A stretch of 63,976 bases of DNA, the filler included, from Raillietiella orientalis (taxonomy: Eukaryota), in NCBI GenBank assembly GCA_036172245.1. It is 17 parts of 17 records of this genome, joined end to end, with 100 filler letters (N's around TTAATTAATTAA, not from the genome) between each part and the next. Parts side by side here need not be neighbours in the genome. Positions count along the whole stretch, not along the records: positions 4,328 to 8,536 come from JAYWIR010000353.1; positions 8,637 to 12,823 come from JAYWIR010000354.1; positions 12,924 to 17,000 come from JAYWIR010000355.1; positions 17,101 to 21,125 come from JAYWIR010000356.1; positions 21,226 to 25,194 come from JAYWIR010000357.1; positions 25,295 to 29,229 come from JAYWIR010000358.1; positions 29,330 to 33,101 come from JAYWIR010000359.1; positions 33,202 to 36,920 come from JAYWIR010000360.1; 9 more parts are not named here. One strand, given 5' to 3'. The notes under the pieces are model-generated. The model was not told where the DNA came from. It was given only the letters and a program-made list of their open reading frames with translations, and did not search any database. This document shows positions 4,328 through 62,644 of this stretch, one piece after another; the first letter of the stretch is position 1, and each line of letters starts with the position of its first letter. Position numbers and translations under genes: made by a program.

Positions 4328-7300
4328 GCTTCGTTGCAGCCAGAACCCTCCAAGGCTGGCAAGAAGGCCGTAAGGCGTCCGGCCTCCCCTCAGGAGTCCC
4401 CCACTTCCGACCCCGAGGTGGAGGGCTGAAGCGCAGCCTCGGTTTCCACGGCACCGCGGAAGAAGGCTGGACGTAAGTCCACAAAGCCAAGGAAGCTCGT
4501 CTCCCCCGTCGAAGGGGAAGAGATGGCTTCCGCAAGCGAGGGTGCCATGAGCGTGGGAAACTCTCGGGACCCGTCGCCCGAGAGACTCCTTAGCACGGAC
4601 ACGGAGGGGATGGAGGGGATGGAGGCCGAACAGGTGCCTCGGGTGCCTGAGAAGGCCGAAACCCCCATGGACATCCCGCCCTTCTCGCAAGAGGAGGGCT
4701 CCCCCACACCTTAATCTTCCTAGCAGTAATGCCGGGAATCTCCTCCCGCCGTCGTCTGCGCATCGCCGTTTGAAACGTGAACGGCATGACAGACGCCGGC
4801 AGGAGACGAGACATGGCCGCCCTTCTCGAGTCCTACGACCTTGCGCTGCTGCAGGAGATCCACGTGATCTCTGCAGAACAAGCACAAGTGATCGAACGGA
4901 TCTCCGGAGGGCGGCTATGGTAAACGTGTGGGAGAGCGAAAAGTTGTGGTGTCGCCTACCTGCTTCGGCCAGGCGTCGTGGCCGCGGTTCGGGGCGTACG
5001 GTTCGACGATCACGGTCGTGTCGGCCAGCTGACTCTCAGGTGGTCCGACTCGATCGATCTGATCGTCACGAACGTGTACGCACCGAGCGGCAAGGACCTG
5101 ATGAACAGGAGGGCGAGGAAAGAGTTTTTCCTTGCCCTCCGGCGAGACCGGATGACCGAAGCAGGCGTGCGGAATGCCCATCTGGTTGCAGGCGATTTCA
5201 ACGTTCGCCTGAAACCAGATGGGCAGAAACCCGAGCGTGACCTGGTCAACGAGGTGTGCATGGCGGTGCACACCTGGAATTTGTTGGCCAGTGCACCGGG
5301 GATGGAAGACAGCATTGACCACGTGTTTGTTGACGAGCACCTGTGCCCTCGCGTGGGCAGGCGCGGCAATTTACCGTGCGAGCTGTCCGACCATCGCCCG
5401 CTAGTCCTCGAGATCCATCCGCGCGACAGGGGCCCGCCCTCGTCAGCGTGTCGTCTCCCAGGGGACAGGCTGAAGCTCCCGGACGCGGCGGAACTTCTCC
5501 GCACGTTCATACGGAGCTTCAGGCTCCGAACACTCCAGGATTGGGACCGCTTCAAGCGGTCGGTCCAGGAGCTCTGCGACCAGTTCCCCCTGCATCGCCT
5601 ACCTGCGGGATTTGGGGAGGGGTCGCGTAACGAAAGGTGCTATCTTCAAACCCGACGTTACGCGAGAACCCCCGACATGCACAGGTTAGCAGAGTATCGA
5701 GCGAAAGCCGAGAGGCAAGCCTGGCAATCCGCGTCGGCCAGCTTGCTGGACGACCAGGGCCGGGAGCACTCGGTTCCCGCTCAGAAACGCGGGATAGTGA
5801 GGAAATTTTACTCCTCCCTGTACACCAGGGCGCCTCCGGAGCGAGACGTCTCACGACTTCTGCTTCCGGAAGGTGCTCCAGCGATCGGGGAGGAGGAGAA
5901 AAGAAGCCTCGACGAGCCTTTCACGATGGACGAGATCCTGTTGGCCATCGGAAAGCTCCAGAAACGCAAGGCCCCAGGGGAGGACGGCCTGCCCGCGGAG
6001 TTTTACCAAACTTTCGCGGCTGAGCTTACCTTCCTGGTACAGCAACTCACCTTGCTGATACGCAAAACAGGTGACGTTCCCGCCTCGTTTCGATCGGCAA
6101 AGGTGCGGCTCCTCCCTAAGGGAGGAGATCTGAGGAGCATGAACAACTGGCGTCCCATCACAATAGTGAATGCGGACGCCAAATTGATAGCCAAGATGTG
6201 GGCAGAGCGTCTGGGACGGGTTGCCAACATCTTCATCAGCCCGGAACAGACATATGCTGTTCCCGGGCGAAGCATGGAGGCGAACCTGTTCCACGCTTCC
6301 ACCTGGCTAGAGCTTCAACATGAAAGGAGCTTGGTGCGCAGCCGGAATTCCGGTGCGTGCGCTGGCAAGGGGTTGGCTGGTCCGGTGGGGGAGGGAGCCC
6401 TTGCGGTCGCAATAGACTTGCGAAAAGGATTCGATTGCGTCGAACAGAATCTCCTTCTGGAGCTTCTGGAACGCTTGGGCTTCCCGGCCTCATTAGTGGC
6501 CTATCTGCGCTCCTGCTGCCGCGACGCGCACATCAATGTTACTTTCAGCGGGCAGACCGTGCACGGCGTGCCGGTGCGGCGTGGGATCCGGCAGGGAGAC
6601 AGCCTGAGCCCCTTGCTCTTCAGTACCTACTTTGAGCTGGTACTGAGAGCGTACAGGGGAACTCTGGCGCACCTGCCGCACGATTGTGCCGGTACGCCGG
6701 CCGTTTCAGCGTACGCGGACTACCTTCTGCTGCTGCTCCCTATGTCCACCCCGGCTGCGGCGGTCGAGAAGTTCTTCGACCTGCTGCATCGGGGAACCGG
6801 ACTTACGGTGAACAGGGCGAAGTCGTCCGTGATGCCAGTTGGTGCGGCGTGGGCAGGGCAGCAGGACTAGGTTCGTTTGGGGATCCCCTCGGTGAGGTAC
6901 TTCAAGTACCTTGGTGTGCCGTTGGGGGACTATTTCCCTGCGGAAGCGTGGTCCGGCTGCCTCCAAAAAGTAGAGACGGTGATCGGCCCGTTCCGAGGCG
7001 GCAGGTTTTTCCTGCCTGAACGGGCCGCGGTTTGGAACATGTTCGCGGCTCCTCTCCCCCGTTCCCTGCTTTTCGTTTGCACCCCCACAGAGAGGATAAA
7101 AAAGCGGACGAAGGACCTTCTCCGTATCGCCCTTTGGGGCAATGGGAGGGCCCGAGTCCGCTTAAAGGACTTGTGAGCTCCTCGTCGGGATGGTGGTCTG
7201 GGCCTCCTGACGCTGGAGCGGCTGGAGCTTCAGCTCCAGTTCCGTTTCATGGCTATTGTGCCGGAGTTGTGGTGCACCTGCTGGTGCGTTCCTGCACGTC

Positions 7301-8527
7301 TCCTCCTTCAGCAAGCCACCGGCAAGACGGGACTGACGTCGTTTCTTGCACTCCGTCGCCGCGTCAACCGATGCGGACTCCAGCTACGGAGGGTGGCTGC
7401 GCTAGCAAGGAAAAATCAAGGATTGCTCACCTGTCTCCCCGCAAACGGTAGTGCCTGGTTGCAGGAAACCGTTCGCACCTGGAGACAGTTCGGCATGCAA
7501 CGCTCCCAACAGGAACGAAGGTTCCTGTTTGGGGGTTACAGAAGTTGCACGCTCCGCGAGATCCTGGAGGATCCAAAGAAGAGAGCGTGTGCAGGAAGAA
7601 CCCCCCTTGCTGCTGTGCTCGACTCCCTAGTGGAACATCAGGACAGCGATGTTGCGGCGAAGTGGGAGGTTTCAGTTACAATCTCCGGAAAGGAGAAGAA
7701 GATAGGAGAGTGGAAGACGGGCCAGTTAACAGACGCTGCGACCCCGAGTACGCCTCCCAATGGACTTCTGAGCTGGGGCGCGCTGCTCGACGTTCCCATT
7801 CAACGTTTGAAGTGGTCCCCGGTACTGATGAACACTTCCACCCTTCCCTTAAAATGGCAGGAGTCGGCTCTCCTGTTACAGCACTGGGGACTCCCCTGCA
7901 ACGCCCGCCGACACCACTGGACCTGGGGAGCGGTGGACCCCTATTGCGTCAGGTGTGGGGAACGGGAGTCCCTCCCCCACCTGCTAGTGGATTGTGTTGC
8001 CCTCCGGCCCCTCTGGTTTCGCTTTGCCGCGGCCATCGGAATCCCCTGCGGCAACCCCAGGGACGCACTGAAAGCCCTCTTCGTTGCCGACGCCCTTCTG
8101 CCAGCGGCCTCGTTAGCAGCTTTGTGCTGCCTACGCGGGATCGTCACCGCTTGGAGCAAGGCTACGGGAGAACAACGCGACCAGGGTGCCATCCAGCCAG
8201 CCTCCCAGTTCCAGAGGAGGGCATCCCGATGGCCCCACCTGGATCCAGGAATACAGAAGGAGCTTGCCGGCATCCTGCAAAGGATGCAACGGCCCCACCA
8301 GCAACTGTGATCCCTTCCCTTACCCTCCCAGTTTTTTCTTTTCTTTTTGTTTTGTTTTTGTTTTTCCCCCTTCCCCCTGCTGCCGTGGTGGACCGTACCG
8401 GTCTGCAAACCGGTGACCCGGGAGGCTCTGTGTTTCTTCGTGCGTGGCTGGAGCAATGTTCCAGCCACAGCACGTCTTTGTAAATGTTTATTTTACAATA
8501 AACGCCCCGGCGAAATCCGGGTGAAAA
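4328..8527 (+). mobile_element. Tx1/L1-clade non-LTR retrotransposon, family A (ORF1 3' end, complete decayed ORF2, 3' UTR)
   Basis: ORF1 tail ends at 4714 and ORF2 ATG is at 4729. T-rich 3' UTR, AATAAA 8497-8502, hairpin, terminus TGAAAA 8522-8527. Confidence 0.95.
4729..8310 (+). pseudogene. ORF2 APE endonuclease-reverse transcriptase-zinc finger, family A, with in-frame stops
   Basis: (W)NVNG, LQE, GDFN and SDH (APE); WRPITIVN, DLRKGFD, GIRQGDSLSP, YADY (mutated YADD) and KYLG (RT); CVRC...HLLVDC. Stops at 4771, 4921, 6868 and 7174. Confidence 0.95.
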
Positions 8528-8636
8528 TCGAACGCCNNNNNNNNNNNNNNNNNNNNNNNNNNNNNNNNNNNNNNNNNNNNTTAATTAATTAANNNNNNNN
8601 NNNNNNNNNNNNNNNNNNNNNNNNNNNNNNNNNNNN

Positions 8637-10875
8637 ACAGGTTGGCTCTTCGCTTCATGTTAAAGTCCACTCGAGTGTACTTCGCTGCTTCGTTGGCCGT
8701 TTTCCCCAGGATTTCCGTCCACAGCAGTTTCGACGCAGAGTCGTCGCCGATGTAGACTCCCAGGTACTTGGCCGTGTCCACCGTACGGAATCCACTCCCC
8801 GTTAGAGTGGAGAGGTTCAGGATTCCGACGGGCAAAAGCTGGCTCTTTTGGGAATTGATTTTCAAGCCCAGTCCCTGTTCCATCAGGTCCACCACATCCA
8901 GAAACGCACGCTGATTTTTCTCTCCCTTGATGAAGAAGAGGAGATCGTCGGCGTAAGCTAGATGGGTAAGGCGTTGACCCTCAATGGAAATCCATTGGAG
9001 GCGTCCGCTCTTCTCGTTGTAAGAAGACAACGCCTCCATGTAGATGACGAACAGCATCGGACTTAGCGAGTCGCCCTGCCGGACTCCCCGTTCCATCCTG
9101 ATTGCTGCCGTCTCTTGGCCGTTGATCTTGATCCGGCAGTACTGGTTCTGGAGTACCGCCCTCACGAAGTTGCTGAAGTGTTCCGGAAGCCCTAGCTTCT
9201 CCAGAACCTTCAGCAGCATCCCATGGTCGATGGAGTCGAAGGCCTTCTCCATGTCAGTGAACACCAGCACCAGGTTCTCGCCGACGTATCGACTGAGTCC
9301 AACAGTGGCCTGGGCACACTTGACATTGTCCGACATGTGTCGTCCTGGGACTGCACATGTCTGGACCGGAGAGATCAGCCTCGACATGACCTTGCCTAAG
9401 CGGTTGGACCAGATCTTCGCCAACCACTTGGCATCGGAGTTTAGGATCGAGATTGGCCTCCATTGGGCGATCTGGGTGAGGTCGCCTCCTTTTGGCAGCA
9501 ATCTCATCCGACTCTCGTAGAAGGACTGAGGTAGTCTGCCTTCTTCCCGGATGCAGAGGGTCAACTGGTGGAACAAGCGCAGGTAGGCGTGCAGGTACCG
9601 CTGATAGTGCGTGATGGGTACACTGTCAGGGCCCGCTGCCACGTCCTTGCGAAGTTGCCCAAACGCAGTCTTCACCTCTTCTTCGGAGAACTCCTCCTCC
9701 AGTCTGTTCCGCTGGAGGTCGTCGGTCCTCTTCTCGAGATAGCTCAAGAAGGCCTGTTGACTAGAGCGACACAGCTGTTGTCGCCTGAAGTGTTTCGTGT
9801 AATGCCTGTGAAAGGCATCCACGATGTCCTCAGACGACTGTCGCTTTTGGCCGTCGTACTGGATGCAGAAGATATCTGTTGCCAGATTCCTCTTCTCCAG
9901 CACGCCGACTTCCCCTTTCACGTTTTGGAAGACGTACCGGCTCTCGTACTGATCGAAGTACTTTGAGAGGGAGCGATCTTGGATGTTCAGCTCCTGGTAC
10001 GCTTTCTGCCTTATTCGATTACTAAAGTACTGCATGTTGAAAAACAGATGGATCCTGTGCTTCAACCTGTCCCAGTCGGCGACTCTGCGGATGATGGTGT
10101 CCCGCAGAATCGCCTTGATGACTTCCTGGTGACAGGGATGCGTTTCAAACCAGGCGGGCATGCAGATGAGCGCCGCCCTGGTGGCCTTTTCCTTCCGAGG
10201 ATTCTCTGTGCGGAGTGTAAACCGTACCCTTGGGTGATCGGACAACAGGTGTGGAATGTCCCGAAAACCCTGGATGCGGTTGTCTATCTCCGCGCTGTAG
10301 AGCACGTGATCGATCGGTTCGTGGCTAGCTGTTCGCCACAGAAGTCCGAAATCGTCGGACAACCGCCGATACGCCGCTCTTCCTCTTGCATCCTGAGAGT
10401 ACTTGATCTCGTCGAGGATGTTCAAGTCACCCGCGACGATGATGATGTCCTTCGGTGCCACTCGTTTGCGGAGTTCTTTGTGTAGTGCCTCCGCGCACCG
10501 ATGCTCCAACTTATGGGGCCCGTATACGTTCACCAAGAAGAGATGAACGTTGCTGGACCAGGACAGTCGCACGCCGATGATCCTACCAGGTACCGGACAG
10601 AAGGTTTCCAGAATGGTGTGGGCGAGCTCGTTTTCGATGAGGATCGCCACCCCCATGGTCTTCTTTTGTCCTTCGCTGGTGAACAGTTGCCCGTTTAACC
10701 GACGTTTCATCTCCAGGGCGTTCTGGTGCCCGAGATGGTGGGTTTCCTGAAGGCACACTACATCTTGTCTTGCGATGGTCCGCATGACACTTTTCCTTTT
10801 CCCCTGGTCCGTCAGTCCATCCACATTCCAGGAGGCGATGTTGATCCTCCTGGCACTGGACAGCGACGAGGCCAT
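8637..10875 (-). CDS. ORF2 APE endonuclease/reverse transcriptase, family G (open to contig end)
   Basis: IASWNVDG, CLQETH, AGDLN, SDH; WRPISILN, DMEKAFD, GVRQGDSLSP, YADD, KYLG. Confidence 0.92.
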
Positions 10876-10887
10876 GAAAGGGGGAGT

Positions 10888-12800
10888 CTACTTGCCAGTC
10901 TTTCTTGCTTTCCTCAACTTCTTCTGCTGGGGAGACCTTTGCAGTTTCCTCGTGGAAGAAGTGGGTTTCTCACTACTGGCATCGCTCTCGGTGCCGGTGT
11001 GATCAGTGGACTCGAATTCGTCCACAGAGCGTTTTGCCTCGGCGATCACCTTGCGCGGGAGGGTCTCCAAGGAAACCGTCGCACAGTAGACCGCCTTCAC
11101 ATCACTGAGCTGGGCCTCCAGCTTCTCCCGCTCTGGTTCCACAACCATGCGGTTGATGTCGTCCTGGGCCTCGCAGATGCGATTCAGGAGTTGCTCCTGC
11201 TGCGTCTCCGGTTGGCTCTGACGGACCTCCTCTGCCAGCTTGATTACCTCCTCGGTGAGTTGCAGGGAGTCCTGCGACTCCGGGGTGGGTTCCGGCATCT
11301 TCACCACTTCCTCTGTCACCTCCATCTTCTCGCCTTCCACTGCTGCATCCTCACGAGAAGGGGGTTGTTGCTCCCTCACGAGCATCTTCCTCTTCCCTTT
11401 TTCCCTATCTCGACGAACCCGTCCGCCGAGACCGGAGCTGCCTCCCTCACCTTCTTTTGTTTGGCTAGCTGAGGTTTGATCACCTCAGCTAGCACCCTTT
11501 CCCTCACGGGGGATTCTCCACGGATTGTCCGGTAGTTAGCAAACTCCGGACAACTCCATTTCGCATGCCCGGGTTGTTTGCAGAACGAGCAAACTTCGGG
11601 CATGGTGCAATTTCGGACCACGTGGCCCATCTTTCCGCACCGGAAACAGCGCGACCTAGGGCACGCGCCCATCCGGTGGCCAAAATTTTTGCAGCCGGTG
11701 CAAAAGATCGGCTGCTGCCTGTATCGAATTGAGACGTCCTGCGACGCCTCGTCGATATGCACGTTTCCGGGGATTTGCGCCCCCTCCTTTAATTTTATCT
11801 TGGCGATTAACTCGCCCGAGAAGATGTTTCCGGAGATGTTCTGGGTTTCATCTCCAGAACCTCTCCGTATTGGGACAGGAAGTCCCACACCGTTTGTCTC
11901 TCGGTGAGGATGCCAAGGATATTCACGAAGACGGTCGTGTAAGGCATCTCGCCGATGCCTTTTGCACCATCTTCTGATTTGATCCCTTTTCGATAAGGGC
12001 CTCCCGCAGCTCCTCGCAGTCTGTATATATGATAAATCCCGCTGAGTTCGGGATTATCGCTTGTAGACTGTCGAAGTCTAGGTTTGTTTTATAGAGGGCG
12101 CAGTACACCTCTCTCACGTTGTTAAACCAGATTAGGCCGGTTTTAAACGTTATTGGCTTGGACGCCGGGCTGAGTCGAACCATCGGCTCCTTTGTTCAAG
12201 TGATCTCACTCGCCGGATTTCCAAACACCCTATTCGGCTGGCTAGAGGCCTGCCCCGCCGTCACCGCTGCGTACGAAAAAGGCGGCTTCGCCACCGCCAA
12301 GCAAGATGGCGTCGCACCATGCACAGTGAGCGCCACGTGGACGCCCGCGGCTCTCGTCTGGGACGCCGCCGCCACCGCGGGCGCAACCCTCGTCGCTGCC
12401 GACGCCGCCGCGGGCGGCACCCTCGGCATCGCCGCCGCAGGCGCGACCTTTCCCGCCGCGGGCGCGATCCTCGGCGTCGCCGCCGCGGGCTCGGCCACCA
12501 TTGCCGTAGCCGTGGGCACGACCCTCGGCATCGCCGCCGTCAGCGCAGCAAAGCCCGCCGCGGGCGCGATGCTCGGCATCGCCGCCCCCACCTCGCCAGT
12601 GCCGCTGTTTACCTCCATGGCTTCCAGGGGGTCGACGGCTGCTCCACTCCTTGGATGTGCCTCCTTGCGGCTGCCGTTGCTGCCGCACTTTTTGGTTGGA
12701 GGACTTCCACCTCGGGTCCTTCGGCGCTGCTGCTGCTGTCGGGTATTTCCCTCGGTGGCACAGTCACTTCCACACTGATCTTCGGCAGGCACTTGCCCTG
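10888..12800 (-). pseudogene. ORF1 (gag-like, 3x CCHC) of family G, frameshifted; Ala-rich N-terminal repeats
   Basis: CTGCKNFGHRMGAC, CFRCGKMGHVVRNC and CSFCKQPGHAKWSC; split across ORFs 12196-12813, 11923-12183, 11376-11888 and 10888-11385. Confidence 0.85.
12362..12590 (-). repeat. ~36 bp GC-rich coding minisatellite (AAMPRVAPAA-like units) in family G ORF1
   Basis: Repeated GCCGCCGCGGGCGCG...CTCGGCATCGCCGCC units. Confidence 0.75.
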
Positions 12801-12923
12801 TGAGGGCACACAAAAATTGCCGCNNNNNNNNNNNNNNNNNNNNNNNNNNNNNNNNNNNNNNNNNNNNTTAATTAATTAANNNNNNNNNNNNNNNNNNNNN
12901 NNNNNNNNNNNNNNNNNNNNNNN

Positions 12924-12974
12924 GAGAGTTCTGCGAACAGTTCCCTGTGCAACGTCTTCCCCGGGGATTCGGCG
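12924..12974 (+). mobile_element. Host ORF2 fragment (EFCEQFPVQRLPRGFG) interrupted by an antisense family B insertion
   Basis: Translates as the conserved EN-RT linker seen intact at ~5575-5615, ~54595-54640 and ~56095-56140. Confidence 0.85.
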
Positions 12975-15079
12975 TTGCCACCCGGGTACGCCCGGGGCGT
13001 TTTTTTATAAAAACTCTACAATTGCGGTACCAGGCCCCGCTCACGGCCTTATGCACTTGACCTACCGGGACGCCGGGACACAGCCCGGCGTGGCACTCCC
13101 CGGCAGCGAAAGGGGATGGGGGAAAACAAAAATAAAAACAAAAAGGCAAAAAAAAAAGTGAGGTTGGGGGGCAGGGAAGAAATCACTGTTCGCTGAGAGG
13201 AGGGCCCATCCGTTGAAGGAAGCCCTCGAGGTCCATCCGTAGATTCCCCAGTTGGGGCCATCCAGCAGCTCTCCGCAAGAAGCGTTGGGCATATGGGATG
13301 ACATCCCTCGCGTGTTGACCCACTCCTTCCTTGTTGGTGTCGCTCCATGCCGCCACGATGCCTCGAACGCAGCACAAGGCTGCAAGGGCTGCGGCTGGCT
13401 GCAGGGCGCCCTTCACGAAGAGGGGCCGAAGAACGTTTCTAAGGGAACTGCCCGTTGGGAGACCGAGGATCGTCCCAAACCGTTCCCAAAGAAGACGAAG
13501 GGCAGCACAGTCCACAATAAGGTGGGAGAGCGATTCCCGCTCTCCGCACCTGACATACGCAGGATCCACAACTCCTCTTGTCCAGTGAGAGCGGCGTGCG
13601 TTGCAGGGTAAACCCCAATACAACAACAGCAACGCCGACTCTTTCCACTTAAGGGGCAGGATCCTGGATTCCTGAAGAAGCGGGGGCCACTTCAGCACAT
13701 CCATAGGGATGGCCAGCAGCTCTCCCCATCTTCTTAGTCCTCGCGGCTGGACGCTCGGGGTCGTGGCGTCACCCAGTTCTCCTGTTGTCCAGCCGCTGAT
13801 CAACTTTTCGCGTCCCTCGATGCAGCAAGAGACTTGCCACCTTGGCGTCCGGCTGCTGTGAAGTACCCTCTTCAGGAAGGGCAGCGCCGTAGCTAGACAG
13901 GTCGTCTCTGCCCACGTGCATCTTGCTGGACTCTCCAGGAGATTCCGCAGCGTGCAGCGGGCGTAGGGGCTGCATCGGAGACGATTCCACGTCTCGTGGC
14001 TTCTCTGGTTGACTACTGCCCACGTTCCAATATTCTCCTCCAGCCAGGCGGGGGAGTTGGCGGGGCAGCAAACCATCCAGCTGTTCTCCTTGGCCAATGT
14101 TGCCATGCGCCCGAGCAGTAGGCCGCATCTTCGCATCTACCGGCCACGGCTGAGAAGACAAGACGCGAGTCCATCGCACCGGGACACACGGCTGGCCTGG
14201 AGGCGGGCTGGAGTGCACCAAGGGGTGCACCACATGTTCGCTGGGATGGCGAGGGTTCGCCACCGCAGCTGCTTCTCCACGCGCTCCAGCGTCAGGAGGC
14301 CAAGACCGCCGTCCCGACGAGAAGCGCACAAGTCCTTCAGTGGGATTCGCGGCCTCCCCTTGCCCCAAAGGGCGATACGGAGGAGGTCCTTCGTCCTTTT
14401 CTTGGATTCCACGGTGGGAGCGCAAACAAAAAGCAAGGGGCGGAGGATGGGGGCCGCGAACGCGTTCCAAACCGCGGCCCGTTCCGACAAATTAAACTTG
14501 CCTTCCAGGAACGGGCCGATCGCCGTCTCGACTTTTTGGAGGCAGCTGGACCACACTTCCGCAGGGGAGTAGTCCCCCAACGGCACACCAAGGTACTTGA
14601 AGCACCTCGCCGTGGGGATCCCCAGACGGACCCAGTCCTGCTGCCCTGCCCACGCCGCACCTATTGGCACAACCTACGACTTCGCCCTGTTAACCTGCAG
14701 TCCGGTCCCGCGGCTGAGCAGATCGAAGAAGTCTCCGACCGCCTTCGCCGGGGTGGACATTGGCAACAAGAGCAGAAGATCGTCGGCGTACGCTGCTACG
14801 GCGGGCGTGCCGGGGCACGAGCTCGGCAAGGGAGCCAAAGTTAACCTGTACGCTCTCAGCACCAACTCAAAGTAGGTGCTAAAGAGCAGGGTGCTGAGGC
14901 TATCGCCCTGCCTTATGCCCCGCCGCACCGGCACGCCATACAACTTCTGTCCACTGAAACAGACGGTAATCATCGCATTCCGCCAGCAGGAGCGCAGGTA
15001 GGAAATCAGGGAGGGTGGGAAGCCCATGCGACCCAGGAGCTCCAAGAGGAGTTCCTGGTCTACACAGTCGAACGCCTTG
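12975..15079 (-). mobile_element. Family B element, 3' half of ORF2 (from RT KAFD to stop at 13183) plus 3' UTR
   Basis: KAFDCVDQELL, GIRQGDSL, YADD, KYLG, zinc finger; hairpin terminus at 12975-13000; closely similar to 56960-59061. Confidence 0.93.
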
Positions 15080-21544: not shown

Positions 21545-21556
21545 CAAGGCGTTCGA

Positions 21557-35433: not shown

Positions 35434-35479
<46 letters not shown>

Positions 35480-35627: not shown

Positions 35628-35631
<4 letters not shown>

Positions 35632-51909: not shown

Positions 51910-54900
51910 TTGGCGAGCGGACGTGTTTTTCCTGAGCTCCCGAGCGCGTCGACAGGAAGCGGTTTTTTCTTTGTGTGTGTTCGTGTGGAACATCGTTGGT
52001 GTCCGATGGCAGCGATGCCTGAGGACACCACGATGGTGGTAGGTGTGGGGGAGGCTTGCCCACCCCCACAGCCTGCAGAATCAGGGGCGTCCGCCCCGGA
52101 ATCATGCATGGCAACGCCGAGGACGTGGAGCGCCATGGTTTCCGCGCCGAGCGCGGAAACCTTGGCAGAGCAAGCGGCCTACAGGGCCTCCGGATATGAA
52201 CCATCTCTGGTTTATAAGGTAGGACCCCTCTTTGATGGTCCTACCGCCCGGGCTTTTAGTAGGGCACTGAAGGATTTCCCTGTACGCGAGGAGGATCTTG
52301 ACGGCCTCTCCGTACTCAGCGGGGGGCAGCGCGTGGAGGTCGTCTGCAAAGACGTAGCCTTAGCACAGCGCCTCATTAACACCCCGCTGAATGTGGATGG
52401 CCGGAAGATCCTGCCGGTTAGCATGGACCACTCCGTAGTGGTCCATCTAACCGGCATTACGAACCGCATGACGCGATCTGTGGTGAGTAATGCACTAAGT
52501 AAGTACGGTGAGATACACGCGTTGTGGCCAAAGCCTACCATTTTCGAAGGCTTTAATAGCCATTTCGGTGGCCAGGCCGCAGCGCGTGTAACAGTTAATG
52601 AGGGCAGTGGCTTGCCCCACAAACTGGAGGTCGCAAAGGAATCCGTCGACCTCTGGTACGTGGGGAAACCCCGCTATTGTGGCTACTGCGATGCAGTAGG
52701 GCACTTGCGCAAGCGGTGCCCGAATATCGAGTGCCACTTGTGCGGGGTTAAGGGACACGTTCATCGTGTGTGCCCCAAACGCCCCACCCCGGTGCCACCT
52801 GCTGCCAAAAAGGCGCAGGCTAAAAAAGGAAAAAAGGTCGAAAGCCCTTATCGCGATACTGGCCGGCCCCAGCCGCCATCTCCTGTTCCTCCCACCCAGG
52901 CGTCGGAGGAAAAACCCGCTGAAGACGCGGGAGAGGAAGAAGGATGGAAGCTGGTAAAGGCCAGAAAAGAAAAAAAAGTTCCCCCCGTGGAACCCGCGAG
53001 AGCGAAGAGAGAAAAGAGCGGGAAACCGTATAAACCCGGTCCGCGCTCGAAAACTCTTCGCGAGTGCACGGTGGCACTCGAACGGATTGCCGTCCCCGAG
53101 GCTGCCACCCGGGGCGACGAGCCTCCCCTCGCCGTTTCCGCCGCGCCCGAGGTTCGCGACGACGAACCCCCTGTTTGCACAGAGGGTGAACCGCGCGAAG
53201 CGCGCGCCGAAAGCGAGGACGCCGCGTTCGCGCAGGCGGCGGAGGAGCTCGCGGCCACGCTGGCCGAGCGTGAGAACTCCTCACGCAAGGCCGTGCGAAG
53301 GCCGGCTCCGCCGAAGAAGGCCCCCGCAGGTGAGTGCGACCTGGGGGCCGTAAGTGCATCCTCCTCGTCGGAGGCACCCCCCCGGAAGACGGGACGCAAG
53401 TCCCAAAAGCCGAGGAGGCGCCTCCCCTCCACGAGCGAGGAGGAGAAGCAGGAAGCCGACGGCAGCGTGGGAATCCCGGAGGGGGAAATCCCACGCGCGG
53501 AAGTCGTCGAGCAGGCCACCCCCATGGAGGAGGGTGAGCAGGGGGGCGAAGTCCTCCATGCCGGCGCGGACCCTGTACAGCCCACCCGTATGGAGGAGGG
53601 CCAACAGGTAGGCGCGACCCCACCGGAGGATGACCCGCCCGACGCGCCGTTACCCATGGAGGAGGGGGACCAGGTGCACGCAGCGCCTGACCCTCCTCCT
53701 CCACCTAGCGTACCGCCCCAACAGGTGGCGGACGCCGCAGATCCGATTTCCCAGGAATAACACCTGAGCTCGCCTGTCGCCGTCGAATCCGCGTGGCCAG
53801 TTGGAACGTCAACGGGCTGAGCGACGACGGCAACAGACGAGATACGGCCGACACCCTGCGTGAGTTCGACCTGGCGCTGCTGCAGGAGATCCACGTGATC
53901 ACCTCGGCAGACGTCCAGGAGATCGAGACGATCGCGGGGGGTCGACTGTATTGGCGATGCGGCGCCCGCAACACCTGTGGGGTCGCGTTTTTCGTGAAGC
54001 CGGCCATCGACGCTGCCGTGAAGGGCGTACCCTTCGATGACGACGGTCGGGTCGGTCAGCTGATTCTCAGCTGGTCCGACTTGATCGAATTGATCGTCAC
54101 GAACGTGTACGCCTCAAGCGGGAAAGGGGGATACAGCGACCGTACCAGGTTGCTGGAAACCCTGAAGCGCGACTGGCTGGCCGATACGAACGTGCGGAAG
54201 GCACACCTGATAGCTGGGGACTTTAATCTCCGTCTGCTGTCAGGTGAGCCCGAAGAACAAGAACGCACGGCCAACGAGTTGTGCGCTGCCATGCGCACGC
54301 GCAACTTGTTGGCGGACGCGGAGGGAATGGACCGCAGCATCGACCACTTCTTCCTGGATGTCGACCTGTGCTCGCGGGTCGGCAAACTGGGAAAAGTTGC
54401 GTCGACGCTGTCAGACCATTCCAGGTTAATCGCCGAGGTATGCCCGCGCGATAAAGGACCCCCGGCCAGGGCGTGGCGGTTGCCTGGGGATTGGACGCGG
54501 CTCTCAGGTGCGAAGGAACACCTTCGCGAATTCCTGAGAGGCGTCACCCTCCGCAGTCTCAAAGATTGGGACCTCTTCAAGGCCCCGGTCCGCGAGTTCT
54601 GCGAGGAGTTCCCCCTGCACCGCCTGCTCCCCGGATTTGGGGAGGGGGCTCGGAACTATAGGGCCTATTTACAGGCCCGCCGGTACGAGAGGACCCCCAA
54701 TGTCCGTCGCCTGGCCGAATATCGAGCCGGGCCCGAGCGCCAAGCCTGGCAATCCGGGTCGGCCAGCTTGCTGGACGACCAGGGCCGGGAGCGATCGGCC
54801 CCACCCGCGATCAGGCACCTCGTGCGGCAGTATTATTCCTCCCTCTACGCTAGGGCACCCCCAGAGCGGGACGCCTCGCGGCTCCTGCTTCCGGACGGAG

Positions 54901-55460
54901 GCCAGGCAATAGGGGAGGAGGAGAGGATCAGCCTCGACGAGCCTTTTTCTACCGGTGAAATTCTCGCCGGTATTAAAAGGCTTAAGAGGCGTAAGGCGCC
55001 AGGAGAGGACGGCCTGCCTGCGGAATTTTTTCAATGCTTCGCGACAGAGCTGGCCCCCCTGGTGCTCCAGTTGACCGGGCTGATCCGAAACGAAGGCGAC
55101 GTTCCCGCCTCGTTTCGGTCAGCCCGTGTGAGGCTCCTCCCGAAGGGAGGAGACCTGAGATCCCTAGGCAACTGGCGTCCGATCACAATTGTGAATACGG
55201 ACGCCAAGCTGGTCGCTGGACTGTGAGCTTCGCGTCTAGGACAGGTGGCAGACTCCATAATTAGCCCGGAGCAGACATACGCTGTTCCCGGGCGAAGTAT
55301 GGATGCCAACCTGTTCTTCGCGAGTACATGGTTCCATGTGCAGCGCTGCCTGAATGAAACTGGCGGAAAGATTGGCAACCCCACTTTGGGGCCGCCAGCT
55401 GGGCTGGGAATGGACACCCGGGCTGGGGAGGGGGCCCTAGCGATCGCGGTCGATCTCCAT
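51910..55460 (+). mobile_element. Family B element, full 5' end, ORF1, and ORF2 up to RT AVDLH
   Basis: 5' motif at 51919; ORF2 VASWNVNG...AGDFN...SDH...WRPITIVN; premature TGA at 55224. Confidence 0.94.
52006..53760 (+). CDS. ORF1 nucleic-acid-binding protein, family B
   Basis: ATG-initiated MAAMPEDTT (same start in the copies at 60555 and 62754); CGYCDAVGHLRKRC and CHLCGVKGHVHRVC. Confidence 0.88.
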   Translation: MAAMPEDTTMVVGVGEACPPPQPAESGASAPESCMATPRTWSAMVSAPSAETLAEQAAYRASGYEPSLVYKVGPLFDGPTARAFSRALKDFPVREEDLDGLSVLSGGQRVEVVCKDVALAQRLINTPLNVDGRKILPVSMDHSVVVHLTGITNRMTRSVVSNALSKYGEIHALWPKPTIFEGFNSHFGGQAAARVTVNEGSGLPHKLEVAKESVDLWYVGKPRYCGYCDAVGHLRKRCPNIECHLCGVKGHVHRVCPKRPTPVPPAAKKAQAKKGKKVESPYRDTGRPQPPSPVPPTQASEEKPAEDAGEEEGWKLVKARKEKKVPPVEPARAKREKSGKPYKPGPRSKTLRECTVALERIAVPEAATRGDEPPLAVSAAPEVRDDEPPVCTEGEPREARAESEDAAFAQAAEELAATLAERENSSRKAVRRPAPPKKAPAGECDLGAVSASSSSEAPPRKTGRKSQKPRRRLPSTSEEEKQEADGSVGIPEGEIPRAEVVEQATPMEEGEQGGEVLHAGADPVQPTRMEEGQQVGATPPEDDPPDAPLPMEEGDQVHAAPDPPPPPSVPPQQVADAADPISQE

Positions 55461-55560: not shown

Positions 55561-58500
55561 TGATTCTCAGCTGGTCCGACTCGATCGACCTAATCGTCAC
55601 AAACGTGTATGGCCCCAGCGGCAAACAGGGTTAACGCGACCGCACCAGGCTGCTGGAAACCCTGAAGCGCGACTGGCTGGCGGATACCAATGTGCGAAAT
55701 GCTCACCTGATAGCGGGAGATTTCAATCTCCGCCTGCTAACAGGTGAGCCGGAAACACAAGTGAACGCGATGAACGAGTTGTGCGCCGCCATGCGTGCGC
55801 GCAACTTGTTCCCGGGTGAGGAAGGAATGGTCCGCAGCATCGACCACGTCTTCCTGGATGCGGACCTGTGTTCTCGCGTCGGCAAAAGGGGGAGGGTTGT
55901 GTCGACTTTGTCGGAACATTCGCGGCTAATTTTCGAGATGCGGCCTCGCGACAAAGGACCGCCATCCAGGGATTGGCGTCTGCCGGGACACTAAATGCGA
56001 CTCCCAGGTGGGAAGGAACACCTTCGCGAATACCTGAGAGGCGTCACGCTCCGGAATCTCCAGGACTGGGACCTTTTTAAGGAATCGGTCCGCGAGTTCT
56101 GTGAGCAGTTCCCCCTGGATCGCCTGCCCCCCGGATTCGGCAAGGGTGCACGCAACCATCGGGCCTATTTACAGGCTCGTCGGTACGAGAGAACCCCTAA
56201 TGTCCGTCGCCTAGCCGAGTACTGCGCCGGGGCCGAACGCCAAGCCTGGCAATCCGGGTCGGCCAGCTTGCTGGACGACCACAGCCGGGAATGTTCGTCC
56301 CCGGCGTCGGTACGCCATTTCGTTCGAAGTTTTTAATCCTCCCTTTACGCCAGAAAGCCACCGGATCGAAACGTTTCTCGACGCTTGCTTCCGGATGGCA
56401 CCTCGGCAATAGGAGAGGAGGAGATGGAAAGCCTCGACGAGCCTTTTACCACCGGCGAAATTCTCGCCGGTATCAAAACGCTCAAGAGGCGTAAAGCTTT
56501 AGGGGAAGACGGCTTACCCGCGGTGTTCTTTCAGAGCTTCGCAGAAGAGCTGGCACCCCTGCTGCTTAAGTTGATCATGCTGATCCGAGACGAAGGCGAT
56601 GTTCCCGCCTCGTTTCGGTCAGCCAGAGTGAGGCTCCTTCCGAAAGGGGCAGACCTCAGGAATTTAAAGAACTGGCGTCCGATCACAATCGTGAATACGG
56701 ACGCCAAGTTGATCGCAGGGCTATGGGCTTCGCGTCTGGGGCAGGTGGCAGAATCCGTAATTAGCCCGGAGCAGACTTATGCTGTTCCCGGGCGAACTAT
56801 GGATGCCAACCTCTTCTTCGAAAGCACATGGGGGCACCTGCAGAGAAGAGAGCAGAAAGGGATAGGGAAAGTCGGCAACCCCACATTGGGGCCGCCAGCC
56901 TTGCTGGGAAGTGACCCCCGGGCAGGGAAGGGGGCCCTAGCGCTCGCAGTCGATCTCTACAAGGCGTTCGGCTGTGTAGACCAGGAACTCCTCTTGGAGC
57001 TCCTGGGTCGCATGGGCTTCCCACCCTCCCTGATTCCCTACCTGCGCTCTTGCTGGCGGAATGCGATGATTACCGTCTGTTTCAGTGGACAGAAGGTGTA
57101 TGGCGTGCCGGTGCGGCGGGGCATAAGGCTGGGCGATAGCCTCAGCCCCCTGCTCTTTAGCACCTACTTTGAGTTGGTGCTGAGAGCGTACATGGTGACT
57201 TTGGCCCCCTTGCCGAGCTCGTGCCCCGGCACGCTCGCCGTAGCAGCGTACGCCGACGATCTTCTGCTCTTGTTGCCGATGTCCCCCCCGGCGAAGGCGG
57301 TCGGAGACTTCTTCGATCTGCTCAGCCCAGGGACCGGACTGCAGGTTAACAGGGCGAAGTTGTCGGTTGTGCCAATAGGTGCGGCGTGGGCATTGCAGCA
57401 GGACTGGGTCCGTCTGGGGATCCCCACGGCGAGGTGCTTCAAGTAGCTTGGTGTGCCGTTGGGGGACTACTCCCCTGCGGAAGCGTGGTCCAGCTGCCTC
57501 CAAAAAGTCGAGACGGCGATCGGCCCGTTCCTGGAAGGCAAGTTTCACTTGCCGGAACGGGCCGTAGTTTGGAACGCCTTCGCAGCTGCCATCCTCCGCC
57601 CCTTGCTTTTTGTTTGCCCCGCCCCCGTGGAATCGAAGAAGAGGACAAAGGACCTCCTCCGTATCGCCCTTCGGGGAAAGGGGAGGCCCTGAGTCCCTCT
57701 GAAGGACTTGTGCGCTCCGCGTCGGGACGGCGGTCTTGGCCTTCTGACGCTGGAGCGCGTGGAGAAGCAGTTGCGGTGGCGAAGCGTCGCCATCGCAGCA
57801 AAGATGTGGAGCACCCCTTCGTGCCCTTCGGCTAGCCACCTGGACAGTGGTGTGTCCCGGTGCGATGGACTCGCCTCTTTTCTTCTGAGACGTGGCCGGA
57901 AGATGCGAAGATGCGGCCTACTTCTTGAGCTCATGGCAACATTGGCCAAGGAGAACAGCTGGATGGTTTGCTGCCCCGCCAACTCCCCCGCCTGGCTGGA
58001 TGAAAATATTGGAACGTGGGCAGTGGTTAACAAGACAAGCCACGAGACGTGGAATCGTCTCCGATGCAGCTCCTACGCCCGCTGCACGCTGCTTAATCTC
58101 CTGGAGAGTCCAGCAAGATGCACGTGGGCAGAGACGACCTGTGAAGCTACGGCGCTGCCCTTCCTGAAGAGGGGACTTCACAGCAGCCGGACACCAAGGT
58201 GGCAAGTCTCCTGCTGCATCGAAGGACGAGAAAAGTTGATCAGCGGCTGGACAACAGGAGAACTGGCAGACGCCACGACCTCGAGCATCCAGGCGCGAGG
58301 ACTAAGAAGATGGGGCGAGCTGCTGGCCATCCCTACTGATGTGCTGAAGTGGCCCCCGCTTCTTCAGGAATCCAGGATCCTGCCCCTTAAGTGGAAGGAG
58401 TCGGCGTTGCTGTTTTTGCATTGAGGTTCACCCTGCAACGCACGCCGCACTCACTATACAAGAGGAGTTGTGGATCCTGCGTGTGTCAGGTGCGGAGAGC

Positions 58501-59061
58501 GGGGATCGCTCTCCCACCTTATTGTGGACTGTGCTGCCCTTCGTTTCCTTTGGGAACGGTTTGGGACGTTCCTTGGTCTCCCAACGGGCAGTTCCCCTAG
58601 AGACGTTCTTCGGCCCCTCTTCGTGAAGGACGCCCTGCAGCCAGACGCAGCCCTTGCAGACTTGTGCTTCGTCCGAGGCATCGTGGCTACATGGAGCGAC
58701 ACCAACAAGGAAGGAGTGGGTCAACATGCGAGGGATGTCATCCTATATGTCCAACGGTTCTTGCGAAGAGCTGCCGGATGGCCCCAACTGGGGAATATGT
58801 GGACTGACCTCGAGGGCTTCGTTCGACGGATAAGCCCTTTCCACAGCGAACAGTGATCCCTTCCCTGCACTCCAACTTCTTTTTGTTTGTTTCTTTTTAT
58901 TTTACTTTTTGTCTTATCCCCATCCCCCTTCGCTGTAGGGGAGTGCCACGCCGGGATGCGTCCCGGTGTCCCGACAGGTCCTGTGTTAACGGCCGTGGTG
59001 GGGCCTTGTACCACGCATGTAAAATTTATTAATAAACGCCTCGGGCGTACCCGGGTGATAA
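55561..59061 (+). mobile_element. Family B element, decayed ORF2 (stop 58856) and 3' UTR
   Basis: EN, RT (KAFG variant, YADD) and zinc finger; AATAAA 59031, hairpin, TGATAA end. Confidence 0.94.
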
Positions 59062-59170
59062 CGCCGAATCNNNNNNNNNNNNNNNNNNNNNNNNNNNNNN
59101 NNNNNNNNNNNNNNTTAATTAATTAANNNNNNNNNNNNNNNNNNNNNNNNNNNNNNNNNNNNNNNNNNNN

Positions 59171-59625
59171 CTTCTTCGTTGCCGACGCCCTGTGGCCAGC
59201 GTCCTCGATAGCAGCCTTGTGCTGCCTTCGTGGGATCGTCGCCGCCTGGAGCACGGCGACGAGAGGACCTAGCGATCAGGAAGCCATCCAGTGCGCCTCC
59301 CAGTTCCTGAGGAGAGCGTCGCGATGGCCCCACCCTGATGTTCACAACAAACAAGAGCTTGCCAGCATCCTGAGAGGGATGATGCGGCCCCAGCAGCAAC
59401 AGTGATCCCTTCCCGTTCCCTCCCACCCTTTGTTTGTTTTTTTGTTTAGTTTTTTTGTTTTTCCCCTTTCCCTTGCTGCCTTGATGAACCGTACCGTTCT
59501 AGAAACCGGTAAATTGGCAGGCGCCGTGGTTCTTAGCTTCTGGCTGGAGCATTGCCACAGCCATTAATGATATGTTTACAAAGTTTATTTTTTTAATAAA
59601 CGACTCGGAGAAATCCGAGTGAAAA
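59171..59625 (+). mobile_element. Family A-type 3' end
   Basis: ORF2 C-terminus ...ILRGMMRPQQQQ*; AATAAA 59595, hairpin CTCGG/CCGAG, TGAAAA. Confidence 0.9.
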
Positions 59626-60453
59626 TCGAATGCTTTATGCAAATCGACTGCGATCGCGAGGGCTCCTCTCCCCTCCCGACCATCCCGTCCCCCACCGACG
59701 GACGCACCGGAATTCCGGTTGCTTATTATGCTCCTTCCTTGTTGGAGCTCTAACCATGTGGAAGCGTGGAAGAGGTTCGCCTCCATACTTCGCCCGGAAA
59801 CAGCATATGTCTGTTCCGAGCTGATGAAGATGTTGGCGACCCGTCCAAGGCACTCTGCCCACAGCTTGACTAGCAACTTGGCGTCCGCATTCACTATTGT
59901 GATGGGACGCCAGTTGTTCATGCTCCTAAGGTCTCCTCCCTTAGGGAGGAGCCGCACCTTTGCTGAACGAAACGAGGTGGGAACGTCACCTGTTTCGCGG
60001 ATCAGCAAGGTGAGTTGCTGTACCAGGGGGGTAAGCTCAGCCGCGAAAGTTTGGTAAAACTCCGCGGGCAGGCCGTCCTCCCCTGGAGCCTTCCGCCTCT
60101 TGAGCTTTCCGATGGCCGAGATGATCTCGCCCATCGTGAAAGGCTCGTCGAGGTTCCTTTTCTCCTCCTCCCCGATTACTGGAGCACCTTCCGGAAGCAG
60201 GAGTCGTTTGACAGCCTGCTCCGGAGGCGCCCTGGCGTACAGGAAGGAGTAAAATTTCCTCACTATCCCGCGTTTCTGAGCGGAAACCGAGTGCTCCCGG
60301 CCCTGGCCGTCCAGCAAGCTGGCCGACCCGGATTGCTAGTCTTGCCTCTCGGCTCCCGCTCGATACTCTGCTAACCTGCGCATGTCGGGGGTTCTCGCGT
60401 AACGTCGGGCCTGAAGATAGCACCTTTCGTTACGCGGCCCCTCCCCAAATCCC
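59626..60453 (-). mobile_element. Family A-type ORF2 segment from GFGEG to KAFD, bounded by two insertions
   Basis: Collinear with 5607-6434. Confidence 0.92.
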
Positions 60454-62644
60454 TCTCCTCGAGAGCGGACGTGTTTTTCCGGCGCTCCGCGAACGAGCAG
60501 CGGAAAGCGGTTTTTTTTTGTTCAGTGTGTGCTTCTTCACATCGTTGGTGTCCGATGGCATCGCTGCCAGAGGACACCACGATGGAGGTAGGCGTGAGGG
60601 AGGCTAGCCCCCCCCCACGACCTACAGAACCAGGTGCATCCGCCCCGGAATCGCCCTCGCCGCCCAAGGCGAGGAGCTGGAGCGCCATGGTGGCCGCGCT
60701 GAGCGCGAAAACCATGGCAGAGATGGCGGCCTACCGGGCAGCTGGGTACAAGCCCAGCTTGGTGTACCAGGTAGGCAATCTCTTTGACGGGCGAACTGCA
60801 CGCGCTTTCTCGAGGGCGCTGCAGAACGCCAACGTATTAGAAAAGGATCTTGACGGTCTATCAGTGCTCAGCGGAGGTCAGCGCGTCGAGGTTGTCTGCA
60901 AGGACATCACCTCGGCGCAAAGCTTGATTACCACCCCGCTGAACGTGGACGGACGCAAGATCCTACCAGTGACGATGGACCGCTCCGTAGTGGTCCATCT
61001 GACAGGGATCACCAGCCGCATGACGCGGTCTGCGGTTGGTGATCAGTTAAGAAAATATGGCAATGTTCACGCGCTATGGCCAAAGGCCACAATCTTCGAC
61101 GGCTACGATAGCCTGTTCGGAGGGCAGGCCGCCGCGCGCGTGACGGTGAAGGAGAGTGGGCTTCCCCACAAACTAGAGGTCAATGACGAAGTCGTAGACC
61201 TCTAGTACGTGGGGAAACCCCGCTTTTGTGGCTACTGCAATGCAGTAGGACACTTGCGCAAGCGGTTCCCGAACATTGTGTGCCACTTATGCGGGGAGAA
61301 GGGCCACGTGCGCCGCGTATGCCCTAAACGCCCCACTCCGGTGCCGCCTGCTGCAAAGAAAGCACAGGCAAAACGCGGAAAAATGGTCGAAAGACCAAAA
61401 AGAGATACTGGCCGGCAGCAGCCGCTAGCCCCTGTTCCTCCCACACAGGCGTCGGAAGAAAAACCTTCCGAAGACGCGGGAGTCCAAGACGGTTGGCAGC
61501 TGGTCAAGGCCAGGAAGGAGAAAAAGGTGCCCCCCGCGGAACCCGCGAAAGCGGTAAAAAAGACAGCCGGCAAAGGCGAAAAAACCTGGGCCGCGCTGCA
61601 AGACCATACGGGAATGTACGGTGACACTGGAGCGCATAGCCGTTCCCGAGACTGCCACCCAGGACGACGAGCCTTCCCACGCCGTTTCCGCCGCGCCCGA
61701 GGTTCGCGACGACGAACCCTCTGTTTGCACAGAGGGTGAGCCGCGCGAAGCGCGCGCCGAAAGCGAGGACGCCGCGTTCGCGCAGGCGGCGGAGGAGCTC
61801 GCGATCACGCTGGCCGAGCGTGAGAACCCCTCACGCAAGGCCGTGCGAAGGCCGGCTCCGCCGAAGAAGGCCCCCGCAGGTGAGTGCGACCTGGGGGCCG
61901 GAAGTGCATCCTCCTCGTCGGAGGCACCCCCCCGGAAGACGGGACGCAAGTCCCAAAAGCCGAGGAGGCGCCTCCCCTCCACGAGCGAGGAGGAGAAGCA
62001 GGAAGCCGACGGCAGCGTGGGAATCCCGGAGGGGGAAATCCCACGCGCGGAAGTCGCCGAGCAGGCCACCCCCATGGAGGAGGGTGAGCAGGGGGGCGAA
62101 GTCCTCCTTGCCGGAGCAGCCCCTGTACAGCCCACCCGTATGGAGGAGGGCCAACAGGTAGGCGCGACCCCAACGGAGGGTGACCCGCTCGACGCGCCGT
62201 CACCGATGGAGCAGGGGGACCAGGAGCTCGAGGCACCTGTCCCTCCTGCCAAAACTAGCGTCCCGCCCCAACAGGTGGCGGACGCCGCAGAGCCGATTTC
62301 CCAGGAAGAACACCTGGGCTCGCCTGTCGCCGTCGAATCCGCGTGGCCAGTTGGAACGTCAACGGGCTGCGCGACGACGGCAACAGACGAGATACGGCCG
62401 ACACCCTGCGTGAGTTCGACCTGGCTCTGCTGCAGGAGATCCACGTGATCACCTCGGCAGACGTCCAGAAGATCGGGACGATCGCGGGGGGTCGACTGTA
62501 TTGGCGATGCGGCGCCTGCAACACCTGTGGGGTCGCGTTTTTCGTGAAGCCGGCCATCGACGCTGCCGTGAAGGGCGTACGCTTCGATGACGACGGTCGG
62601 GTCGGTCAGCTGATTCTCAGCTGGTCCGACTCGATCGAATTGAN
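60454..62644 (+). mobile_element. Family B element, 5' end, decayed ORF1 and start of ORF2
   Basis: Collinear with 51910-54090; TAG at 61203, plus a frameshift. Confidence 0.93.

Follow-up and report, generated by a model that had tools for sequence, protein, structure and literature searches.

In a 63,976-base window of the Raillietiella orientalis genome (assembly GCA_036172245.1), families of long interspersed nuclear element (LINE) retrotransposons lie inserted in the coding sequence of one another, on the opposite strand and at defined nucleotide positions. For two of these families, denoted A and B, the recurrence of junctions, together with target-site duplications and empty sites, supports real, heritable insertion that is specific for both site and orientation. 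Overall, we think it likely that the pattern arose by sequence-specific target-primed reverse transcription, through which LINE families entered coding sequences of their sister LINEs. The window consists of 17 contigs (c1 to c17), whose sizes fall from 4,227 to 3,473 bases, the last piece being cut by the window end. The contigs are joined by 16 identical artificial spacers (N44-TTAATTAATTAA-N44, the first at 4228-4327), and features that seem to cross these spacers are not real. An earlier note on this DNA had described a network over the span 4328-62644; this span is not one locus but comprises 15 separate size-sorted contigs with artificial spacers between them, and the 'network' is therefore a pattern that recurs across independent contigs and not one nested locus. 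Closely related GC-rich LINEs are present in 11 contigs (as judged by tblastn), ten of which contain element termini, and one of which (c17) is an ORF1 fragment without a terminus. The remaining contigs comprise two of satellite DNA, one with an 18S ribosomal RNA (rRNA) gene, one low-GC contig with a Rep-like open reading frame (ORF) and two with distant LINEs (c3 and c10).

Element termini and the families they belong to

Junctions were mapped by tblastn with the ORFs of the window, followed by alignment, at each strand flip, to uninterrupted copies in other contigs. The coding strand flips inside six contigs, precisely at element termini, and junction positions, duplications, empty sites, orientation and protein domains are given here as directly observed. 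Altogether, 14 termini (eight three-prime and six five-prime) were identified, and 14/14 adjoin opposite-strand LINE sequence of the type that encodes an apurinic-type endonuclease (APE) and a reverse transcriptase (RT). The antisense LINE flanks reported previously were thus recovered, but the number of termini, earlier given as 13, is 14 by motif census and junction reading; the six target sites and their coordinates were all borne out when the junction sequence was read against uninterrupted copies. The flank that precedes the contig end measures only 9-21 nucleotides in three cases (c2, c14 and c15). Uninterrupted (empty) copies are present for 6/6 target sites: the A copy in c2 carries empty B (~5607), D (~4881) and A (~6430) sites, the A copy in c4 an empty C site (~16278), the C copy in c12 empty E (~44790) and A (~45190) sites, and the B copy in c15 uninterrupted A (~56959), B (~56133) and F (~56060) sites. 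Several contigs also break at targets, with c14 ending at the K-A-F-D site described below, and the end of c4, the end of c6 and the start of c7 lying at the D site.

The termini have conserved features of their own. The 3'-end motif AATAAACGNNNNGG, with at most one mismatch allowed, matches 11 times in the window against 2.5 matches expected, and 11 or more matches were obtained in 0/100 shuffles; eight of the matches are element ends, two are tail-plus-flank sequences of family C and the remaining match falls within the 18S gene. In all eight 3' ends, AATAAACG occurs together with a GC hairpin and an A-rich tail that is short (4-10 nucleotides). The hairpin keeps its position in 8/8 ends and folds in 6/8, and in c16 it contains a compensatory pair (CCCGG/CCGGG to CTCGG/CCGAG). 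Similarly, a motif resembling GGACGTGTTTT is found 7-13 nucleotides from the terminus in five of the six 5' ends and has diverged in the sixth (c11).

The earlier note had called the elements Tx1-like; at the level supported by the data, they are assigned from their sequence to the APE-encoding LINEs (non-LTR retrotransposons) within the L1 superfamily. Exo_endo_phos (apurinic-type endonuclease) and RVT_1 domains were detected in ORF2, both above the Pfam cut-off in c2, c3 and c14, together with a weak zf-RVT match at the ORF2 C-terminus (20.5 bits, under the cut-off of 27.5); zf-CCHC in ORF1 scored above the cut-off in c3 (25.4 bits) and below it in c5 (16.7 bits). The closest protein of solved structure is human LINE-1 ORF2p (PDB matches with E = 1.5e-48 and 2.5e-35), and no long terminal repeats (LTRs) were found by self-comparison of the window. 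A matrix of RT nucleotide identities separates four groups: A-type (95% between c2 and c6, and 84-91% for c7, c11 and the host in c16), B (96% between c15 and the host in c4), C (93% between c5 and c12) and G (81% between c3 and c10). The RTs of A, B and C are 25-35% different from each other and that of G is 44-49% identical to the others. The ORF1 in c17 (62744-63976, cut by the window end) represents a third, B-related lineage with 54% amino acid and 73% nucleotide identity to c14, and the families therefore outnumber the six that are named A to F.

Database relatives of these elements are distant. The best match to the ORF2 of c3 is 33% identical; the ORF2 of A matches one metagenome protein at 72% (P0121, in which the RT is uninterrupted) and all others at 28% or less. 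A scan of metagenome DNA returned only relatives at 25-40% (L001-L008), and a look-up in the ESM Atlas gave generic APE and RT clusters with no informative taxa. Copies within the window are 5-18% divergent, with a transition/transversion ratio of ~1, few indels and mostly broken ORF2s. The divergence, the ratio and the broken ORFs indicate that the nests are not young, and the mutation spectrum gives no hint of a mutation process directed at repeats.

Recurrent junctions of families A and B

Family A contributes five termini at four loci, all of which fall on one nucleotide position, in antisense to K-A-F-D, a motif of the RT; in c15, this target motif aligns with the 'DAEKAFD' of human ORF2p. 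The target-site duplication is 12 bp long (TCGAACGCCTTG, which corresponds to the K-A-F-D codons in reverse complement); it borders the 5' end of the element in c4, separates the tandem copies in c6 and borders the 3' ends in c2 and c16. In c4, a full 5' end of A (15080-17000, plus strand), containing a 5' untranslated region (UTR) with the GGAAGTGTTTTCTC motif, an ORF1 of 610 amino acids and the start of ORF2, begins at the junction ..TCGAACGCCTTG|TGCGCTCC, which can be placed at 15079/15080 or 15080/15081 owing to a one-nucleotide ambiguity. Its host is a B copy (12975-15079, minus strand), cut at K-A-F-D with the target at 15068-15079, whose RT is 96% identical to that of c15; the latter provides the uninterrupted counterpart, being 91% identical over 2.1 kb. 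In c6, all on the minus strand, an A copy comprising ORF2 and the 3' end (21557-25194, 91% identical to c2, with the contig end at the D site) is followed by the 12-bp target (21545-21556) and then by another A copy, represented by its 5' end (21226-21544) and forming the downstream member of a head-to-tail pair, so that a single target is sandwiched between the two copies. The 3' ends at 8527 in c2 and at 59625 in c16 both read ..GTGAAAA followed by TCGAA(T/C)GC... The copy in c2 (4328-8527, plus strand) contains the 3' part of ORF1, ORF2 with its APE, RT and C-terminal domains and a 3' UTR that ends in ..GGGTGAAAA, after which the first nine nucleotides of the K-A-F-D target (8528-8536) lead to the contig end. 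The guest in c16 is the 3' part of a diverged A copy (59171-59625, plus strand; ~77% identical to c2 and c6 in the 3' region), which ends in ..GAGTGAAAA at the same site, in an A-type host copy that is 88% identical to c2. Collectively, the junctions in c4, c6, c16 and c2 represent at least three events at a single site, with hosts from two families and guests from two subfamilies. Self-immunity, whereby a family would lack its own target, was considered, but near-consensus A sites are present in A-type copies and such copies have been struck too, so there is no clear immunity.

Family B contributes four termini at one position, the antisense of G-F-G-E-G, two of them 5' ends (c14 and c16) and two 3' ends (c15 and c4). 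Both 5' ends, which start at 51910 in c14 and at 60454 in c16, follow ..CCCCAAATCCC, the antisense of the G-F-G-E-G codons. In c14, 21 nucleotides of this target (51889-51909, minus strand) precede the 5' part of B (51910-55460, plus strand), which contains a 5' UTR with GGACGTGTTTTTCC, ORF1, the APE region of ORF2 and the start of the RT, and stops a few nucleotides short of the K-A-F-D codons. The 5' part in c16 (60454-62643, plus strand) is 85% identical to that in c14 and the two differ in their extra 5' nucleotides. Two 3' junctions of B are absent from the earlier note. The first, in c15, lies at 59061|59062 (..GGGTGATAA|CGCCGAATC), where ORF2 and the 3' end of B (55561-59061, plus strand) meet the antisense G-F-G target (59062-59070). 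The second belongs to the minus-strand B copy of c4 and lies at 12975|12974 (..GGGTGGCAA|CGCCGAATCCCCGGGG..); the flank downstream of it is a plus-strand LINE fragment in the sense orientation (12924-12974) that encodes ..FPVQRLPRGFG (..EFCEQFPVQRLPRGFG). The 5' and 3' flanks of B overlap by ~11 nucleotides, which indicates a target-site duplication of ~11 bp. The 5' flanks are A-type hosts and the 3' flanks belong to another host variant (CCCCAAATCCC versus CGCCGAATCCCCGG).

Targeting between the two families is reciprocal, as had been claimed before: A has inserted into a B copy in c4 and B into an A-type copy in c16. In the latter contig, the A-type host survives as a fragment of 828 bp (59626-60453, minus strand) that extends from the K-A-F-D to the G-F-G-E-G codons and is struck at both ends. 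By arithmetic, the chance that an insertion re-hits the same nucleotide and strand of an element of ~5.6 kb is about 1 in 11,000 per event, which makes two or more chance repeats negligible.

Since short contigs that end at homologous positions suggest an assembly fragmented by repeats, we considered whether the junctions could be assembly chimeras, or the products of twin priming or template switching. A single public sequence run (13% of sampled words, available as contigs) was consulted for c16 and returned 69 records; the eight that are listed are pieces of 150-620 nucleotides, of which 0/8 extend across a junction, and a contig from the run reads uninterrupted through the B site, with a loose end at 60453 (A-type sequence). 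The outcome of this check was neutral, speaking neither for nor against the junctions. The joined sequences themselves are, however, unrelated and have no stretch in common beyond the 11-12-bp duplication, and the same joins recur in copies that are 5-23% divergent on both sides. Twin priming, moreover, would invert part of one element at points that vary; the termini found here, in contrast, are complete and stand against fixed points of another family, and neither target-site duplications nor empty sites would be expected from twin priming or template switching. We thus regard an artefactual origin of the junctions as highly improbable.

Families C to F and the extent of site specificity

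The 3' ends of family C, at 47238 in c12 and at 17174 in c5 (minus strand), both lie at the antisense of E-C-S-V-V-V in the ORF1 of A. In c5, an A-type ORF1 fragment (17101-17173, plus strand) ends at these codons and flanks the C copy (17174-19612, minus strand), which contains ORF2 from S-L-L-R-E-T-G to ..GGGTAATAAA and is itself cut at 19612 by family E. The 5' end of E starts at 19613, at the S-L-L-R-E-T-G codons of C, and extends to 21125 (plus strand), with a 5' UTR that carries the GGACGTGGTTTTGC motif and the ORF1 with the sub-threshold CCHC knuckle mentioned above. In c12, the C copy (44515-47238, plus strand; 92% identical to c5) is followed by an A ORF1 fragment (47239-48112, minus strand) that runs from the E-C-S-V-V-V codons and is 90% identical to positions 15405-16278 in c4. 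Family D starts at 43097 in c11, at the A-Q-E-I-E-R codons near the ORF2 start of an A-type copy (40790-43096, minus strand), and its 5' end (43097-44414, plus strand) comprises a 5' UTR and an ORF1 that is 42% identical in amino acid sequence to that of E. Family F is represented in c7, a contig that starts at the D site, by an A-like ORF2 (25295-28906, plus strand) with the tail ..GGGTTTAAAGA; its 3' end, at ~28906, lies at the T-L-Q-N-L codons of a B-type ORF2 fragment (28907-29229, minus strand; 89% identical to c15).

A separate observation concerns the start of c6 (21226) and the end of c12 (48112), both of which are equivalent to positions 15398-15405 in c4: the two contigs break within 7 nucleotides of each other in the ORF1 of A (..YVEEG|YNPS..), which may mark one more insertion site or else a local indel at which the assembly was split. 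We also considered whether C and D could be one family, as CCGTTCGA is common to both sites at the inferred nick. This was rejected, as the match loses its significance once corrected for the number of site pairs (of 20000 randomly drawn pairs of LINE windows, 434 had an 8-mer in common, or ~0.28 across 15 site pairs), and the CCGTTCGA match between C and D is a weak lead.

A number of observations weigh against the reading of the pattern as site-specific insertion into sister LINEs. The sample is small and biased: it comprises 10 nested contigs, each 3.5-4.2 kb in size, which come from the assembly's tail, so insertions may also lie elsewhere in the genome. The orientation statistics are weak, with 6/6 sites antisense giving p ~0.03 (two-sided), and the z-scores of the 3' hairpins are insignificant in 7/8 copies, one fold beating its shuffles. 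Each of the families D, E and F is represented by a single junction. The ORF2 of F is 82% identical to that of A (c2) in nucleotide sequence and ~88% in amino acid sequence (endonuclease region compared), yet it has a different tail and an unrelated flank; the specificity of F could either be set by few residues, or recently re-targeted, or the F junction could be an off-target event. Compared with c4, the C flanks in c5 and c12 (~88% identical) have the same 3-nucleotide deletion, and they resemble one another more than either resembles c4, which makes a single insertion that was later duplicated the simpler reading, and on this sequence evidence the two C junctions probably descend from one event. 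Lastly, the two 3' junctions of B may also descend from one event, as the elements are 91% identical and their common 9-nucleotide flank is the same.

The observations on C and on the B 3' ends would also be expected if composites had formed once and had then been copied by segmental or tandem duplication in a repeat cluster: element and flank in c5 and c12 are ~88-92% identical and share a deletion that is specific to the flank, and the c4 B copy resembles that of c15 in both element and flank. Such duplication probably accounts for some of the recurrences (those of C, perhaps those of the B 3' ends), but it is ruled out as the source of the A junctions or of the 5' and 3' set of B. A has struck one and the same nucleotide in a tandem pair as well as in hosts that belong to two families, the 5' and 3' junctions of B lie in different host variants, the A site that is empty in c15 is occupied in its relative c4, and target-site duplications are present. 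In addition, flanks beyond the duplication differ among the A and B copies in proportion to the divergence of the host families. As an explanation of the pattern as a whole, duplication of composites is therefore improbable, and we retain independent site-specific insertion for A and B.

A more limited account would hold that only A and B (perhaps also C) are site-specific, and that D, E and F are ordinary insertions in a LINE-dense region, their antisense orientation being partly luck. The single junctions of these three families, the similarity of F to A and the orientation statistic, obtained from a repeat-enriched sample, are all compatible with this account. At the D site, however, three other contigs (the end of c4, the end of c6 and the start of c7) stop within 0-11 nucleotides, as would be expected if several copies were occupied, although such breaks provide soft support. 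Furthermore, the D, E and F termini are complete and typical of their families, without 5' truncation, and A and B demonstrate that strict specificity does evolve in this lineage. On balance, we consider it rather unlikely that specificity is confined to A, B and perhaps C. The earlier claim that each family has its own site consequently holds for A and B, for which junctions recur, and cannot be extended in the same way to C, which may represent one event, or to D, E and F, which are single.

Proposed mechanism, comparison with known systems and other sequences in the window

Tx1L and R1 are APE-type site-specific LINEs, and the mechanism that we propose is based on them by analogy. The ORF2 endonuclease would nick one strand at a defined sequence, which for A would be the position immediately 5' of TCGAACGCCTTG, on the strand complementary to the K-A-F-D codons of the host. 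The element RNA, recognised via its 3' GC hairpin and short A-rich tail, would then be reverse transcribed from the nick, and a second nick 11-12 bp away would give rise to the target-site duplication, the outcome being full-length copies with defined 5' ends. Both the nicking enzyme and the order of these steps are modelled on characterised APE-type site-specific LINEs as described in passages of PMC4494074, and the putative role of the hairpin and tail, to which the RT would bind, on a form of 3' recognition that PMC3747384 terms 'stringent'. Because the recognised sequence would be asymmetric, the orientation of insertion would be fixed, and it is opposite to that of the host gene at 6/6 sites. 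Repeated insertions would produce tandem pairs with one duplication unit between them, and nests with two guests in one host copy.

By analogy with other site-specific LINEs, the likely benefit is a landing site that is multicopy and dispensable. Breakage of the host element is a consequence of insertion and may be a by-product of such a multicopy safe harbour. The earlier note had proposed a radiation whose safe harbour is the coding sequence of sister retrotransposons; of this proposal, insertion into sister-LINE coding sequence with fixed site and orientation is retained, and hyperparasitism as an evolved strategy is not. We put forward only tentatively, and with some doubt, the possibility that between four and six sister LINE lineages form a guild, which radiated as their endonucleases were re-aimed at different short sequences within each other's genes, always antisense. 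Such a guild would form a closed, reciprocal network of homing parasites, in which one target consists of RT active-site codons that an active host could hardly change and the nests constitute a LINE-only chromosomal compartment.

Insertion of LINEs into other mobile elements has precedents in the Tx1 clade, which is known from animals. According to the relevant passages of PMC4494074, Xenopus Tx1L inserts into the piggyBac-type transposon Tx1D, crocodilian Tx1-Mar into Mariner-N4_AMi and Tx1-9_AMi into Harbinger, all of which are DNA transposons, and Tx1-8_Crp and Tx1-4_AMi insert into LTR retrotransposons. As far as those passages describe them, Tx1 elements resemble the present families in being of APE type, in using a defined position in another mobile element, in their duplications and tandems around one duplication unit, and in a specificity that varies between related families. 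They differ in that their targets are DNA transposons or LTR elements, whereas the targets here are the coding sequences of sister LINEs, including an RT motif, and targeting is reciprocal.

The Zepp and ZeppL elements of green algae are likewise GC-rich L1-type LINEs that nest in their own kind and form clusters (PMC3446292 and PMC8226300, in part). In the portion of PMC8226300 that concerns them, however, the arrays are mostly 5'-truncated 3' ends of one family, and the tail of Zepp is given as (A)n in a footnote to Table 3 of PMC3747384; the nests described here, in contrast, involve several families, complete 5' ends, nucleotide-fixed sites and A-rich tails of 4-10 nucleotides after a hairpin. 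Zepp-like self-nesting was accordingly ruled out by the six complete 5' ends with a conserved motif, the presence of at least four to six families and the short tails. A multicopy harmless site, a precise position and a fixed orientation are features in common with R1, R2 and the LINEs that target rRNA genes, small nuclear RNA (snRNA) genes or microsatellites (based partly on sections of PMC4640811), but the targets in those cases are simple repeats or families of host genes and not the genes of another autonomous retrotransposon. Nested LTR retrotransposons of plants also land preferentially in other retrotransposons; their preference is for particular regions (PMC6911290) and is mediated by an integrase, whereas the targeting considered here would be nucleotide-exact, fixed in orientation and due to an endonuclease.

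No description of a multi-family network of LINEs inserting into sister LINEs was found in the full-text literature searched, which lies outside Repbase Reports and most subscription journals. Relative to the known systems, the differences are coding targets in sister LINEs, coexisting specificities, reciprocity and an RT motif as a target. The use of repeated DNA as a safe place to land, a known habit among site-specific LINEs, is thereby extended to sister elements. If the pattern extends across the genome, it would provide a panel of ORF2s with 65-90% nucleotide identity and several nucleotide-exact specificities; with it, the endonuclease residues that read DNA could be mapped, and it would bear on LINE-based tools for site-specific insertion. 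It would also be a clear case of transposons that live mainly in their own kind with reciprocal targeting, and would bear on competition between transposon families, on the origin of LINE-only clusters (as at some algal centromeres) and on constrained coding motifs as a general means of keeping a landing site from mutating away.

The two distant LINEs, in c3 (8637-12823) and c10 (37021-40689), form family G, which has a lower GC content and, in c3, an ORF2 that is open over 768 amino acids; neither termini nor nesting were found for this family within the window. Two satellite arrays, at 39-4227 and 48220-51788, lie in opposite orientations with periods of 278 and 277 bp, respectively, and ~43% GC, and are 72% identical to one another. 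A complete eukaryotic 18S rRNA gene occupies 33795-35627; the 1,293 very GC-rich bases 3' of it (35628-36920) gave no match to 5.8S, and the first internal transcribed spacer (ITS1) thus appears unusually long. Finally, c8 (29330-33101; 47% GC) is unrelated to the LINEs and contains an ORF with a Viral_Rep match (29820-30218, plus strand; 27.2 bits against a Pfam cut-off of 26) as well as a 224-bp inverted repeat (30675-30898 and 32885-33100, 92% identical), and this contig may be a Rep-encoding insertion resembling single-stranded DNA viruses, or a contaminant.

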